Shown in pieces: positions 17,947 through 50,880 of a stretch of 64,000 bases of DNA (position 1 is its first letter; each line of letters opens with the position of its first letter). The position numbers and the translations under genes are program-made. The notes below the pieces were generated by a model. It saw only the letters and a list, made by a program, of their open reading frames with translations. It ran no database searches and was not told the DNA's origin. Origin of the DNA: Nitrosopumilus sp. (GTDB lineage Archaea; Thermoproteota; Nitrososphaeria; Nitrososphaerales; Nitrosopumilaceae); NCBI GenBank assembly GCA_965205675.1, contig OZ242186.1, positions 160,001 to 224,000 on the forward strand. The letters are read 5' to 3'.

Positions 17947-18499
17947 AAAACATCTTTTAAGAAAGAAACATGATAAATTTGAACATCATATCAAAATTAC
18001 TTTAATACAAGATTAAAATGTTTATTAGAATATAGATCTCATCTACAAATTAACAACATGTGTTCAAATCTGTTAAAATTTGAATATTAAATATTCTTTG
18101 AGAGTTTATTTCGAATCTAATTTAATCTGTTTCATTATTCATCTCTATCTTATGATCTAAAACTAAAATACAAAGTTACATTGAAGTTCAAATTTAATTT
18201 ACAACGTACAAAAAACTGCGTATTGTGATGTACAAGAAATACTGTGTTTTTAGATTACTAACAATTAGATGGGTTGTGCAATTACAGGTAAAACTTAACC
18301 TTTCATTGTAATTGATTTTAAAAATGATATTGATTGTATTGTAGATAAAATTATTAAAAATGTATGAAAATGGAAAAATATTCAACTATCTGAAAAAGAT
18401 AGATCAGATACAAAAATAACTGAATAATAAAATCGATCTGTTGAAAACCGCTACTAAAACATATATCTATGTGAAATCTTTAAAAACATTTGCACTCTT

Positions 18500-18690
18500 T
18501 TGCAACACATGAGAATGGCTACCGCTCGAGATGATCCCATTCATTTTCAAAAGATGAAACCGGACACATATCTATTCGAGGATCTCCCTCAGTACCATTC
18601 TTCATCCATTTATCAGAACCATGCCGCAGTTACAAAACGAGGATCTCCCTCAATATGTTTAACGAGGATTATAGTTCTGATCATAATGTT
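18500..18690 (-). ncRNA. Putative bridge/seek RNA of IS110 #1
   Basis: Stem ATCAGAAC/GTTCTGAT and stem GATGAA/TTCATC, each enclosing an identical TGAGGGAGATCCTCG hairpin; loop segments match element junctions; RNA ends are approximate. Confidence 0.75.
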
Positions 18691-18693
18691 TCA

Positions 18694-19803
18694 TTATGCA
18701 TTTTTGATGCACTGGTAAAATGTCATGTTGTTTTTTAACATCCAGTAAATTATTCTCAACAGTTTGGATGCTGCTGCCACTGCAGCTTTTGATGTCCCCC
18801 TCTTTTTTGCAAGACGTTTGTAAAAATTTGTAATGGTGCTGTTTTTTGCATATCTTACATGAGAATGTACTGCCTCCACCAGAACCCAGCGTAACATGCT
18901 ACTTCCTCTTCTTGTTATGGAACCATGGCGTATGGTGTCAGCTGAGTTTCTCACCGATGGTACAATTCCTGCATATGAACACAGTTTGTGAGAATCTGAA
19001 AATCTTTCGATATTGTCAATTTCAGAGGATATGGTTAATGCAGTGAATCTTCCAACACCAGGTATTGATTCTAAGAGTTGTGCGTTAGAACCATGTTTTA
19101 GAGCATCCTTGATTCTCATGTCTGACTCTGCGATTCTATCATTGATTGATATTATCATCTTGAGATATCCATCTATTCGATAGTCATCTAATCCCAACAG
19201 TTTGTGCACATATGAATCAGAAAATGCAGTTCCTGGTATCTTGATTGCATTTTGTAAGGTTATACTGTGAATCAAATTTTTCATCCTTGTCCTGTTGCGG
19301 ACTAGTTTGGTTCTATATCTCACCAGTTGTCTTGTTTGCACGGTATCTTTTTCTGGTACATGACAAGATGAGATGTATCCTCCTCTTAGCAAATCTGCCA
19401 AGATGTGAGCATCAATCTTGTCAGTTTTTTTCTTTGCTGCTGCAATTGCTTTTGTGTGATATGGGTTTGATAGTATTACATCAAATCCTAGTTCGTCTCG
19501 CAGAAACCTAAACACGCCATACCAGACAGATGATGATTCCATTACACATTTTGAGTTTTTTGGGATTGCAGAAAATACTTTTTTGATATCCTCTCTGGTG
19601 TTTGTAATTTTTTCATTGAATAATGTATGTCCTTTATCATCCATTGTTTCGACCTGTAAGAATTCTTTGTGCAAATCAATTCCGACATAGGTCATGGGTT
19701 TTGTCTTTCTAGTCCTAATGATTTTCTTTGGTTTTTTCTTGGAGGTGTATCTTTTAGAAACTATAGAATCAGCAGTACCATCTAAATTTCGTTGTTTATT
19801 CAC
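18694..19803 (-). CDS. IS110 family transposase (DEDD recombinase), intact
   Basis: VGIDLHK, MESS, KTDKIDA, SIPGVG, SYAGIVPSVRNSA. Confidence 0.95.
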   Translation of the reverse strand: MNKQRNLDGTADSIVSKRYTSKKKPKKIIRTRKTKPMTYVGIDLHKEFLQVETMDDKGHTLFNEKITNTREDIKKVFSAIPKNSKCVMESSSVWYGVFRFLRDELGFDVILSNPYHTKAIAAAKKKTDKIDAHILADLLRGGYISSCHVPEKDTVQTRQLVRYRTKLVRNRTRMKNLIHSITLQNAIKIPGTAFSDSYVHKLLGLDDYRIDGYLKMIISINDRIAESDMRIKDALKHGSNAQLLESIPGVGRFTALTISSEIDNIERFSDSHKLCSYAGIVPSVRNSADTIRHGSITRRGSSMLRWVLVEAVHSHVRYAKNSTITNFYKRLAKKRGTSKAAVAAASKLLRIIYWMLKNNMTFYQCIKNA

Positions 19804-19929
19804 ATATGGTTACACTAGAATACCAAAAAAATACTCTTCTCATGCGTGTGACATGTAATTTGGGATCATCAATATCAGTAAAAGTATTAGAATGCTCAAA
19901 AATCGATTTCCTAGAAATCATCTGTAAAA

Positions 19930-41927: not shown

Positions 41928-42026
41928 TACAAGACAGAAACAAGAGTTTGTTGTGATATCTCAGAAATTATTTGAAATTAAATTCAATGAAAGAAGAGAT
42001 TTTGTCTGCAATTACGCAAGAGGTCT
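41928..42026 (+). mobile_element. Second right-end fragment of the ISL2-like element
   Basis: Inverse homolog of 35989-36095, ending AATTACGCAAGAGGTCT. Confidence 0.8.
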
Positions 42027-42548
42027 ATTGGTGACAATCTCAACATGTACTTTTCCCTTTCTTTTCAATATACCAAATACAATTGTCTTGTTCTTGGCAC
42101 CTCTGCCACGATTTCCCTTTCTTTTTCCTCCAAAATAGGCCTCATCAGCCTCAATCTGACCCTTTAGAACATCATCTGTTTTGGATTGTTCTTCAAGTAT
42201 TGAGAATCTCATGATGTCAAAAGAATGCAATGCGGTAGGATAACTAACACCAACTTCTTTTGCTGCACGTCTTGCACTAATCCCAAGATCAAATAGTTTG
42301 ATTAGAACCAATCATTTTGGATAATCAATATTGATGATACCAAACTGTGTATCTGAGAATGGTTTGTAGTTTGTCTTACATTTACTGCATCTTAAATTCC
42401 CTCTGCTCATCAGATAATATTTTGGAGAATCACACTTGGGACAACATACAGAACTTGTACTGTTGAATCTTTTACACAGAAATTTTAATGATGTTGATTT
42501 ATCTGAAACTATTTTGGATAACTCAATGATATTGATAGTTTTTTCCAA
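42027..42548 (-). pseudogene. IS1595-family transposase (stop at 42312-42314, 3'-truncated)
   Basis: CPKC..CSKC zinc ribbon; EADEAYFGGKRKGNRGRGA; probable left end at 43876-43925, beyond the IS110 insertion. Confidence 0.88.
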
Positions 42549-42557
42549 TAACTATAT

Positions 42558-43671
42558 GTGAATAAGAAAGCAAGGAAATCAGATAGCATAAAAAATGAAT
42601 CTAGTTCCAAGGTTCGTAAATACTCGGCTCCAAAAAAGATTACAAACAAACAGATTAGGAAGAAACCAAAGAAAGGCATGTTTGTGGGCATTGACCTGCA
42701 CAAGAAGTTTCTTCAAGTAATAAATGGATGATGCAGGCAAAGTATTACAAAATGACAAAGTGGATAACACTCATGAATCTATCAGGAAGCATTTTGCAAA
42801 AATACCAATTTCTGCAAATATTGTAATGGAATCCTCATCAGTCTGGTATGACACGTATCGATTTCTCACAGATACTTTGGGATACAAAAACGTCACACTC
42901 TCAAACCCATATTTGACAAAGGCAATTGCTACATCAAAAAAGAAAACAGACAAGATTGATGCCAAGATATTGGCAGATCTTTTACGAGGAGGATACATTG
43001 CCACATGTTATGTTCCAGACAAAAAGATTGTACAACAAAGACAGCTTGTAAGATATAGGAAAAAACTAATCCAATGGAGAACATCTGTCAAGAATTCAGT
43101 TCATGGAATATTGTTACAGGAAGGAATCAGGATTCCAGGAGTTACATTCACTGAAACATACAACAGAAGACTCAAGGCACTAGGAGATTACAGAATAGAC
43201 GGATTCTTGCAACAAATCAGCCACCTTAATTTACAGATTGCAGAGATTAATTCCAAAGTGTATGCTGCTGTAAAAGTTAATCCTGATGCAATTTTGATAA
43301 ACTCGATTCCGGGAATTGGGCATTATTCTTCGCTTGTCATTGCATCAGAGATTGCAGATATTGAGAGATTCAATGATTCCCACAAACTGTGTGCATATGC
43401 AGGAGTTGTACCATCAGTTAGAAACTCTGCAGATACAATACACCATGGCAGAATAACAAAAAGGGGAAGCATGACATTGAGATGGGTTCTAACAGAATGC
43501 ATACACACTCATGCAATTCATGCCAAGGATAGTGACATTACAAAATTTTACAATCGCATTAAAAAGAAAAGAGGATCATCCAAAGCTGCAGTAGCTGGTG
43601 CATCAAAGATCCTGAGGGTGATTTATTGGATGTTAAAGGAGAGGAGAGAATTTGTACAAAATTATAGTTAG
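42558..43671 (+). pseudogene. IS110 transposase with frameshift near 42720
   Basis: FVGIDLHKKFLQV is in a different frame from MDDAG..(42724); 2 nt missing relative to element #1. Confidence 0.88.
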
Positions 43672-43830
43672 GACTGCAAGTCGCGTTGTAATTATTGAGG
43701 GACAAGGCCTCGTCTAATAACTGCGAACAATCCTAACTAGGATGAAGATAGCATTGAGAGAATAGTCTCGTATGGATACATGTCTGCCATCTTTTGATTG
43801 AAACCATTCTCTAGCGAAAGCCATGCCCTG
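43665..43830 (+). ncRNA. Putative bridge/seek RNA of IS110 #2
   Basis: Stem TAGTTAGGA/TCCTAACTA with GAGG/CCTC hairpin; second GATG/CATC loop with GAGA/TCTC hairpin; co-linear with #1; RNA ends are approximate. Confidence 0.8.
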
Positions 43831-44004
43831 ATGTATAGAAAGAGAGGAAATGTATAAAAACAATTCACATGGATAATTACATAAAATTAATTGGGGGTAA
43901 TGGGGGTAATAGGTTTACAATCACCTAAAAAAATATCTTAGGTCTCAAAGATTATAGAACTATCATGAGCATCATTTTAATACATCATTTCTCAAAGAAT
44001 CCTG

Positions 44005-45090
44005 ATGAGGTACACGACTGTAATAGGACTGTTGGTTTTGAGTGTAGCATTGCTTGCCATGACAGTATCATCGGCTGATGCCAAAGTGTTATCCCCTCTA
44101 AAGCAGTTTAAGCAAGGGGTACCAATAGAGCAGATTCAGTGCAATGGTTCTGCGGTACTACTTGAATCCCCAAAGGGAAAGCCTGCATGTGTCAAAGATA
44201 GCACTGCAAAGAAACTGCTTGATAGGGGATATGTCATAATAATACAAAATGACATTGTAGAAAACAACATTGTAAAAGGTGTCGTATCTTCAGATGCTCA
44301 AATCACAACAGAACAAAATGAAACGGTACTATCAAATGATATAATTGATAAACAACAAGAACGTGAGAATTACCTAAATTCTTTACAGTTTGGTCTAGTT
44401 GGTGATGGTGAATTTGATGGCGAGCTTTATGGATATGATCAAAATATACATATCAGACAACCAGCTACTATACAATACAGTTTTTTGTTCAGTCCAGATC
44501 ATTATGAAATGAACGAAGATGATCTTGTTGATAGAGATAGTCTTAATGATATAATCTCAATTCCCTCTAAAGGCGCAAGTGGTACTAGTGGTGATACCAT
44601 TGAGGATACCATTGATTATAGAGAATGGCTCCCAACATGGGTTGCACCAGGATACTATCTAAAATGGGTAGACATTAGGCAACCCAAGGATCAATATTCT
44701 CTTGGTCATGAAGGTGAGGGAAGAATACAATTTACCTTTATTCCAAAGGGTACGGACCTACCTGATGGTATAACCCACAAGGAATTCACAGATACCAGTT
44801 ATTATCTAGTCACAGCGAAGATATATGAGGATACGCCAAAGCCGGAGTATATGTATACAGCCAGTGAGAAAGCTGAAGTAACTGACAACGGCACAACCAC
44901 TGATCTTATTTTTGAAGACAGGTGGGATGGATACATAGAGCATTCACATGCAAACAGATCTGATCCTGCAAAACATAGTGTAAAGTATATTACTCCTTAT
45001 CTCATTATTGCTTCTGGTGGAACTGCATTAACCATGCAAGAACATGAAAATATTGTTATAGAGTTATTTGAAAGATATGACAGCAGATGA
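44005..45090 (+). CDS. Secreted protein with SPLKQ..C..PACVK domain
   Basis: Signal peptide ADA; ATGA overlap with 45087. Confidence 0.75.
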   Translation: MRYTTVIGLLVLSVALLAMTVSSADAKVLSPLKQFKQGVPIEQIQCNGSAVLLESPKGKPACVKDSTAKKLLDRGYVIIIQNDIVENNIVKGVVSSDAQITTEQNETVLSNDIIDKQQERENYLNSLQFGLVGDGEFDGELYGYDQNIHIRQPATIQYSFLFSPDHYEMNEDDLVDRDSLNDIISIPSKGASGTSGDTIEDTIDYREWLPTWVAPGYYLKWVDIRQPKDQYSLGHEGEGRIQFTFIPKGTDLPDGITHKEFTDTSYYLVTAKIYEDTPKPEYMYTASEKAEVTDNGTTTDLIFEDRWDGYIEHSHANRSDPAKHSVKYITPYLIIASGGTALTMQEHENIVIELFERYDSR

Positions 45091-50419: not shown

Positions 50420-50497
50420 TTAGGTGATTGTAAACCTATTACCACCAACTATTTTTGAGTAATTATTGGAAAAAACAATCAACATAATTGAGTTATC
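50420..50497 (+). mobile_element. Fragment of IS1595 left end and first codons; empty target of IS110 #2
   Basis: TTAGGTGATTGTAAACCTATTACC..GTAATTATTGGAAAAAAC..GAGTTATC matches the joined 43928-43876 and 42550-42517 flanks. Confidence 0.8.
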
Positions 50498-50880
50498 TGA
50501 GACTTGGGCATAATTAATTCTAATTTTTGAGTCAATTCTCAAATTATTCAAATCAAAAAAGCTAAGGATCTTATCATGTTTTGTTCATTGGAATGTCAAA
50601 ACAAATGAAAATCCCTGGCAACATAAGATGCCAGTCATTCCTTATTGGTGTTTTGTATCTGTACTGTCTAACAAATATTCATGACCCAAAATCTTCCAAA
50701 TTATGCTAATTCCTGAAATTTAAACTTGAATCTACAATGTACGTAAATCGAGTTCAGAATAGGGTGACGAATTTTTGTTATTGAGTATAACTGACCATTC
50801 CATCACCAGAATTGACAATTAGTTGGAAATCTGCCTAGTTCTGACCAAAGTAAATTTCTTTATCTGTGCAATAACCTATT

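Follow-up and report, generated by a model that had tools for sequence, protein, structure and literature searches.

Recombinases that are guided by bridge RNAs or seekRNAs are under development as programmable tools for genome rearrangement, and the characterised examples are bacterial. Within the IS110 family, the IS1111 subgroup is defined by subterminal inverted repeats of 7–17 bp (PMC11208160, PMC11187229). Bridge RNAs have been predicted for 93% of the IS1111-type entries in ISfinder (PMC11208160), and the order of the guide segments in IS1111 seekRNAs is described as the reverse of that in the IS110 type (PMC11187229). The seekRNA elements ISEc11, ISPa11 and ISKpn4 were described as encoding a DEDD recombinase, with a long stretch of non-coding DNA downstream of its gene and inverted repeats in subterminal position; in the IS1111 seekRNAs, the segment that is complementary to the top strand lies 5' of the one for the bottom strand and the target matches overlap (Siddiquee et al. 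2024, PMC11187229). All of these properties return in the element that is the subject of this paper.

On the archaeal side, 662 IS110 recombinases have been catalogued (bioRxiv 10.1101/2024.06.21.599552), and a survey of archaeal insertion sequences noted a very IS-rich Nitrosopumilus genome (PMC13343696). No description of the family presented here was found in the literature on bridge RNAs and IS110 elements in archaea and on IS110 elements of Nitrosopumilus; supplementary tables of surveys on bridge RNAs and on archaeal insertion sequences may list it. The element lies in a stretch of 64,000 nucleotides from the genome of a Nitrosopumilus, an ammonia-oxidising archaeon; this stretch is called the window below. 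We consider it highly probable that it is an IS1111-type element of which the DEDD/Ser recombinase is directed by a bridge RNA or seekRNA encoded downstream of the gene.

The element, its boundaries and its copies

The element of about 1.3 kb (Table 1) belongs to the IS110 family and is of the IS1111 type. This assignment, in which the IS110-group elements IS621 and ISCro4 served as the protein references, is supported by Pfam domains, by homology to both references, by the downstream non-coding region, by a perfect 8-bp subterminal inverted repeat and by the order of the guide segments, in agreement with the original prediction, which was made from the sequence of the window. The prediction also holds in calling the element thaumarchaeal: relatives of the recombinase are found nearly all in records of Nitrosopumilus, Nitrosopumilaceae or Cenarchaeum, and a homologue (E ≤ 1e-20) is present in 32 of the 201 genomes of the order.

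The single-contig genome of 2.01 Mb contains ten near-identical copies (99–100% identity), which together are called subfamily A. In all ten the right terminus reads ...CACATGGATA, followed by ATTACA in eight and ATTATA in two, and in five of them the left junction is NNAATA^ACTATATGTG, the caret marking the junction. A tandem arrangement was considered for the other five copies and rejected, as these carry an element of another subfamily, B, inserted 8 nt inside the left end; when this nested element is taken into account, AATA ends the left flank in every copy. The consensus insertion site is TCYAATA^ATTACA, and when the other copies were checked for unrelated sites, the whole set of ten turned out to be located at TCYAATA^ATTAYA-like sequences, with only a short core in common. 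The element has no long terminal inverted repeats and no long target duplication, and its insertion is sequence-specific.

The strings on which the prediction was built are all present where they had been read: TCCAATA and TAATTACA in the flanks, TGTAATTA at 43687–94, TCTAATA at 43713–19 and ATGGATA at both 43772–78 and 43869–75. A repeat search extended the first arm match to 9 nt, 43687–95 pairing at 100% with 43873–81. The point of crossover is ambiguous within a shared ATAA, so that the term TA core is used here as a convention. Joining the flanks had been said to regenerate a sequence that occurs uninterrupted at 50459–50477; this holds over about 17 nt, after which the paralogue continues with ATTACT and not with ATTACA. 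An exact uninterrupted target site is present at genome position 1994512. The non-coding right end (43672–43875) measures 204 nt and is longer than the left end of 129 nt, and the RNA model is placed in the right end.

Table 1 Features of the subfamily A element and related features in the window
Feature	Position	Strand	Basis or remarks
Second IS1111-type element, subfamily C	18465–19811	−	About 61% protein identity; intact recombinase frame
Remnant of interrupted IS1595-type transposase gene	42012–42548	−	Zn_ribbon_IS1595 ORF and DDE_Tnp_IS1595 ORF
Left target half and core TCCAATA	42544–42550	+	Overlaps TTG start codon (42548–42546, minus strand) of the interrupted IS1595-type transposase ORF; intact paralogue (L139) has the same ORF start
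IS1111-type element, subfamily A	42549–43875	+	TA core written at both ends; one of ten copies, 99–100% identity
Left end, non-coding, 129 nt	42549–42677	+	CTAT at 42552–55 complements 5' strand of donor loop
Left subterminal inverted repeat ATGTGAAT	42556–42563	+	Repeat search
N-terminal recombinase fragment (MFVGIDLHKK...) with first catalytic Asp	42678–42731	+	Ends at frameshift, about 42717–42726
Rest of recombinase gene, 315 aa, DEDD_Tnp_IS110 and Transposase_20	42724–43671	+	ORF, Pfam
Predicted target-binding module	43667–43737	+	Outer stem 43667–72 / 43732–37; inner stem 43681–85 / 43722–26; 5' guide strand 43686–95; hairpin 43696–43712; 3' guide strand 43713–21
Predicted donor-binding module	43740–43785	+	Stem 43740–44 / 43781–85; 5' strand 43745–54 (contains AUAG); hairpin 43755–70; 3' strand 43771–80 (contains AUGGAUA)
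Oligo-T run just past donor module	43792–43795	+	Kept in most relatives; possible archaeal terminator
Conserved 3' segment with GCGAAAGC mini-hairpin (43814–21) and outward TATA-like box (43853–60)	43796–43862	+	Alignment of relatives
Right subterminal inverted repeat ATTCACAT	43863–43870	+	Repeat search
Core and right target half TAATTACA	43874–43881	+	String match, flanks of copies, repeat search
Uninterrupted paralogous IS1595-type end, one-mismatch target	50459–50477	−	Sequence match

A predicted, conserved two-loop RNA in the right end

Two stem-bounded loops with central hairpins had been proposed for the DNA behind the gene, and this architecture was recovered by RNAalifold. Relatives were collected as subfamilies in the same genome (by tblastn) and as 77 loci from other genomes, from which 26 distinct right ends that align well were used for the RNA alignment. 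The consensus fold comprises 26 pairs in five helices; standard pairs occupy 98.4% of the 676 cells and nine of the 26 pairs are changed on both sides, so that the stems show compensatory changes among homologues. The observed values of pairing and covariation were reached by none of 500 shuffles, and pairing falls to 32–47% in controls in which the partners were slid. Several of the conserved pairs are G:U, which fits an RNA of the recombinase strand. Both modules follow one plan, consisting of a stem, a strand of 10 nt, a hairpin, a strand of 9–10 nt and the closing strand of the stem. As a single sequence, the right end does not fold into a structure more stable than its shuffles (z = −0.66). 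A search of positions 42000–44500 against Rfam 15 with E values up to 10 gave no relevant family and only weak unrelated matches, and for the segment that separates the donor module from the right inverted repeat RNAalifold gave no consensus fold, despite the conserved blocks that are present there.

A covariance model of the RNA matches 29 places in the same genome, and the matches in subfamilies A, B and C, when compared by coordinate, are located just downstream of IS110-type genes detected by tblastn. Among the 151 genomes of the Nitrosopumilaceae, 18 contain a match, and these are distributed over eight of the 27 genera. One match in the genome (1516988–1517149, E = 1.8e-15) has a right end that adjoins TA^ATTATA and no recombinase nearby according to tblastn; it may be an orphan guide RNA or the remnant of a right end.

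Two further observations concern the ends of the element. The A/T-rich TATA-like box faces outward at about 15–22 nt from the right end, and its position is conserved in the relatives. Together with the oligo-T run it would fit transcription that passes over a circle junction through gene and RNA and ends before the box. Furthermore, the left end opens with TAACTATA (42549–42556), and these 8 nt form a perfect complement to the 8 nt at the 5' foot of the outer stem (43663–43670). Among the relatives, the variable base at this foot is a G exclusively in elements with a CCAT left end, a rule that is broken by the B-like and L106-like lineages. The complementarity may represent a second contact with the donor or may be due to chance.

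Correspondence of the loops with target and donor ends

The 5' strand of loop 1, UUGUAAUUAU, complements AATAATTACA of the target, and the 3' strand, UCUAAUAAC, equals TCCAATAA with one G:U and is an exact match to the flank of copy c2; the two matches extend over 10 nt and 8 nt of TCCAATAATTACA. In loop 2, the 3' strand AUGGAUA is identical to the right end plus core over 7 nt, and the 5' strand AUAG complements CTAT of the left end over 4–5 nt, for which an offset of one base is needed in subfamily A. A shuffling test, which took in the three longer arm strings, was carried out with 200,000 permutations of the 191-nt non-coding end; the strings occurred singly in 0.7%, 3.6% and 2.4% of these and all three together once.

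The correspondence extends to the relatives. For 24 distinct loop-1 5' arms from the same and related genomes, the longest exact run between the complement of the arm and its own right junction has a mean length of 6.6 nt and a median of 7, whereas non-cognate combinations average 3.3 nt. The observed guide/flank sum was reached by none of 100,000 permutations, a significance that is somewhat overstated since the relatives are not independent. A near-identical variant with the arm UGAAAUUA is located at TA^ATTTCA, and subfamily C, with the arm UAAACAUA, is found at TA^TGTTT. Poor matches, with runs of 2–4 nt, were found for L091, L092/L122, L095, L111 and L119, some of which are chimeric or nested copies. 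Contigs from three public sequencing runs show full identity with the window as far as 43686, beyond which they have a different loop-1 arm, that of a relative from another record (L099); near-identical elements in the environment thus differ precisely in the guide.

Loop 2 varies in a corresponding manner. Left ends with CTAT or CCAT and right ends with ATGGAT or ATAGAT are found in all four combinations, and each combination carries the matching loop-2 arms (UAG or UGG; AUGGAUA or AUAGAUA). In the exceptions (L092, L095, L099, L122, L126 and a variant, Ap) the left end that was detected belongs to a nested B element. The readable guide code that had been proposed is thus borne out by the consistency of the insertion sites over ten copies, by the covariation of guide and flank over 24 arms and by the covariation of the donor loop and the stems.

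Subfamilies differ in their exact core and in the register in which the strands pair. In some of these (L075–L086, L063, L069, L070), the base at the right junction that follows the invariant T is G or T instead of A, and in one subfamily copies differ by a single T at this junction. From these sequences, the second position of the core seems not to be fixed in the A-related family. In IS621 the core is CT.

Insertion in other mobile DNA

In the window, the insertion point lies 1–3 nt upstream of the TTG start codon of the IS1595-type gene, as judged from the uninterrupted paralogue. The genome has about 14 IS1595-type ends, of which four contain the exact 13-nt motif and three of these four are occupied. 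Three of the ten A copies have at least one flank in the start of an IS1595-type transposase gene, which agrees with the prediction that the element is aimed at another insertion sequence. The remainder of the copies narrow this claim. For three copies a flank lies in a transposase gene with HTH_23 and rve domains, two copies are found in a repeated ORF, one is positioned 22 nt from a repeat that occurs in 23 places, and two are in unique DNA. The repeated ORF (L138, 2–376), which holds the sites of copies c3 and c7, matched no family in Pfam; by its motif it may resemble the C-terminus of an IS4/IS5-type transposase. Since most copies outside IS1595-type elements are also in repeated or transposase DNA, the specificity is one for a motif of about 13 nt and not for IS1595 as such. 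As far as the flanking sequences tell, the element is often found in other mobile DNA, but it reads a short motif. Nine sites in the genome that match C[CT]AATAATTACA are unoccupied.

The genome is crowded with insertion sequences nested in one another. Another repeat, present in 23–36 places, includes window positions 50480–50530 and the left flanks of copies c2 and c5; it is associated with a DDE_Tnp_1 ORF in one locus (L141) and abuts or truncates IS1595-type ends.

The recombinase gene

As was noticed in the original prediction, the transposase gene of the window copy is frameshifted. It is split into an ORF at 42558–42731, coding from 42678, and one at 42724–43671, and the break is common to eight of the ten copies. 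An intact frame (331–371 aa) is present in the other two, at genome positions 615802–617134 and 1108045–1109379. Pfam detects DEDD_Tnp_IS110 (PF01548) together with Transposase_20 (PF02371) both in the window copy (E = 2.5e-19 and 3.5e-21) and in an intact copy (E = 2.5e-25 and 3.8e-21). The intact protein is related to the solved bridge recombinases of ISCro4 (E = 5.5e-12) and IS621 (E = 2.7e-9). Its residues D6, E52, D92, D95 and S251 (in copy P0001) align with the GID, E, DxxD and ESG positions of IS621, which we take to be the catalytic D-E-D-D and Ser residues of that enzyme. The motif around the catalytic serine in P0001 reads SA and not SG or TG. The break in the window copy leaves D6 isolated on the short upstream frame.

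Programmed frameshifting was rejected as the favoured reading, because intact and broken versions differ by an indel of 2 nt with neighbouring substitutions, and there is no slippery run. The intact version of this stretch is also present in the contigs from the public runs. The frameshifted copies occupy several different sites, which implies that they were moved in trans by intact copies or that the break was spread by gene conversion. The ends and the RNA of the intact copies are identical to those of the frameshifted ones. With a broken recombinase gene and intact ends and RNA, the window copy is best read as a non-autonomous element that could be mobilised in trans by the two intact copies.

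Related subfamilies

Subfamily B, with about 60% protein identity, has ten copies in the genome, none of them in the window; L007 (G000:C1:1663363-1667690) is an example. The insertion site is in each case TAAC(T/C)ATA^TGTGAAT, 8 nt inside the left end of an A or C element, and the loop-1 arms of B (complement ATGTGAA; sense AACUAUA) match this site. The same nesting is found in other Nitrosopumilus records (L092, L095, L099, L101, L103, L104, L122, L125, L126). In the genome studied here, the A copies with a nested B element are c6–c10 (positions 440464, 927336, 997782, 1501174 and 1664863), and in c6 another insertion, of about 1.1 kb, is present. These five copies share about nine substitutions that occur in none of the five plain A copies, and they occupy four different sites, which suggests that B was inserted once and that the resulting A::B composite of 2.66 kb was transposed as a unit. 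With tblastn, each of the ten B copies is divided into two segments that are read in different frames and adjoin near residues 89–107, implying that all B copies share a frameshift, be it a mutation or a programmed one. Subfamily B may depend on the recombinase of a sibling.

Subfamily C is represented in the window by the guides UAAACAUA and UUUUGUA and by the ends TAACCATATGTG... and ...CACATAGATA. Four C copies in the genome include the recombinase gene, one of them in truncated form, and there is another C left end with a nested B element. One could envisage a guild of related RNA-guided insertion sequences in Nitrosopumilus, of which the guide loops are quickly rewritten, with 24 arms on one scaffold, and in which B has been reprogrammed onto the left end of its siblings. 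It would then be a guided parasite of guided elements, with A::B moving as a unit; we would give this picture an even chance.

Proposed mechanism and alternative explanations

Family membership, ends, site specificity, the conserved fold and the covariation of both loops with target and donor form the observational basis of the mechanism that we propose. An RNA of about 120–130 nt, encoded downstream of the gene, would direct the DEDD/Ser recombinase. Its first loop would pair with both strands of the target TCYAATAATTACA: the 5' strand, complementary to AATAATTACA, would bind the top strand, and the 3' strand, which has the top-strand sense TCTAATAA, would hence bind the bottom strand, one of the pairs being G:U. 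The second loop would read the joined ends of the element, its 3' strand corresponding to ATGGATA and its 5' strand facing CTAT, and insertion would follow from recombination of the target with a circular form at the T-A that both have in common. We infer that the RNA is made and bound by the recombinase, that a circular intermediate is formed and that broken copies are mobilised in trans. In the contigs of four public runs the circle junction was not found. One contig joint across the element (X4), considered as a product of excision, was rejected since it carries 15 other letters that correspond to a paralogous IS1595-type end. Loose contig ends at 42551 read on into IS1595-type sequence and may be derived from paralogues.

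The RNA could also choose the target only, like a short seekRNA, with the protein reading the element ends through the subterminal inverted repeats and the matches of loop 2 being incidental. The inverted repeats are indeed conserved in all subfamilies, the complementarity of the 5' strand of loop 2 is just 4–5 nt long, and the predominant co-purified IS1111 RNAs of 82–96 nt are discussed in terms of target matches (PMC11187229). Yet the arms of loop 2 covary each with its own end, independently of the other, as is evident from the four end combinations with their matching arms, and loop 2 shares the architecture of loop 1, including a core-reading UA at 2 nt from the closing stem. We therefore regard a target-only role as improbable. 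Even less probable is that the right-end sequence works as DNA, by providing protein-binding sites or a DNA hairpin, with the protein selecting the site and no RNA guide being involved. The ends of the element are conserved DNA, which would agree with this, but closely related recombinases (74–99% identity) differ in target in step with their loop arms, the conserved G:U pairs would become mismatched in the opposite strand and in duplex DNA alike, and the solved homologues, IS621 and ISCro4, are described as bridge recombinases of the IS110 family.

A different question is whether the family is still active, or extinct in this genome with copies that are relics, in which case the matches between arms and flanks would merely record past activity. 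The frameshift that is common to eight of the ten copies points in this direction, as does the large number of copies that lie inside other elements or are interrupted by them. On the other hand, two copies have an intact frame with aligned catalytic residues, all copies are 99–100% identical, the spread of frameshifted copies over several sites indicates either movement after the frameshift or gene conversion, and nine matching target sites are still available. Extinction is thus unlikely, though less so than the two preceding explanations, and an RNA-directed recombinase that reads both target and donor is the explanation that we prefer.

Comparison with known systems

The subfamily A family leaves the known mechanism of bridge RNAs and seekRNAs unchanged. 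What it adds is an example of archaeal origin, AT-rich, mesophilic and marine, in which the predicted two-loop RNA is compact and built to a very regular plan. The natural series of reprogrammed guides on near-identical scaffolds is useful for establishing pairing rules, such as register, tolerance of G:U pairs and the variable second base of the core. The family likewise illustrates the behaviour of this kind of element in a genome crowded with insertion sequences, in which copies with defects spread and one element is directed at another.

Compared to ISEc11, ISPa11 and ISKpn4, the Nitrosopumilus element is archaeal, its RNA has no match in Rfam 15, each of the two loops is a simple internal loop around a central hairpin, and the serine motif is SA, not SG or TG. 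With IS621 (Durrant et al. 2024, PMC11208160; structures 8wt6 and others) it shares a two-loop bispecific RNA as described for that element, with a target loop and a donor loop that each read both strands around the core. In IS621 the RNA lies upstream of the gene, as part of the left end, and its guide segments are arranged in the opposite order; the proteins are only distantly similar. ISPpu9 with its small RNA Ssr9 is likewise reported as an IS110-family element that has a small-RNA gene downstream of the transposase, is present in several copies and inserts in repeated sequences, but it is bacterial and targets REP sequences (PMC12288879), unlike the element from Nitrosopumilus. A preference for a site in the end of another mobile element has been described for IS4321 and IS5075, which are also of the IS1111 type (Partridge and Hall 2003, cited in PMC11208160). 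Their target is given as the terminal inverted repeat of Tn21-family transposons in bacteria, whereas in the window it is the start of an IS1595-type transposase gene; and, unlike IS4321 and IS5075, subfamily B has its site in the left end of related IS1111-type elements.
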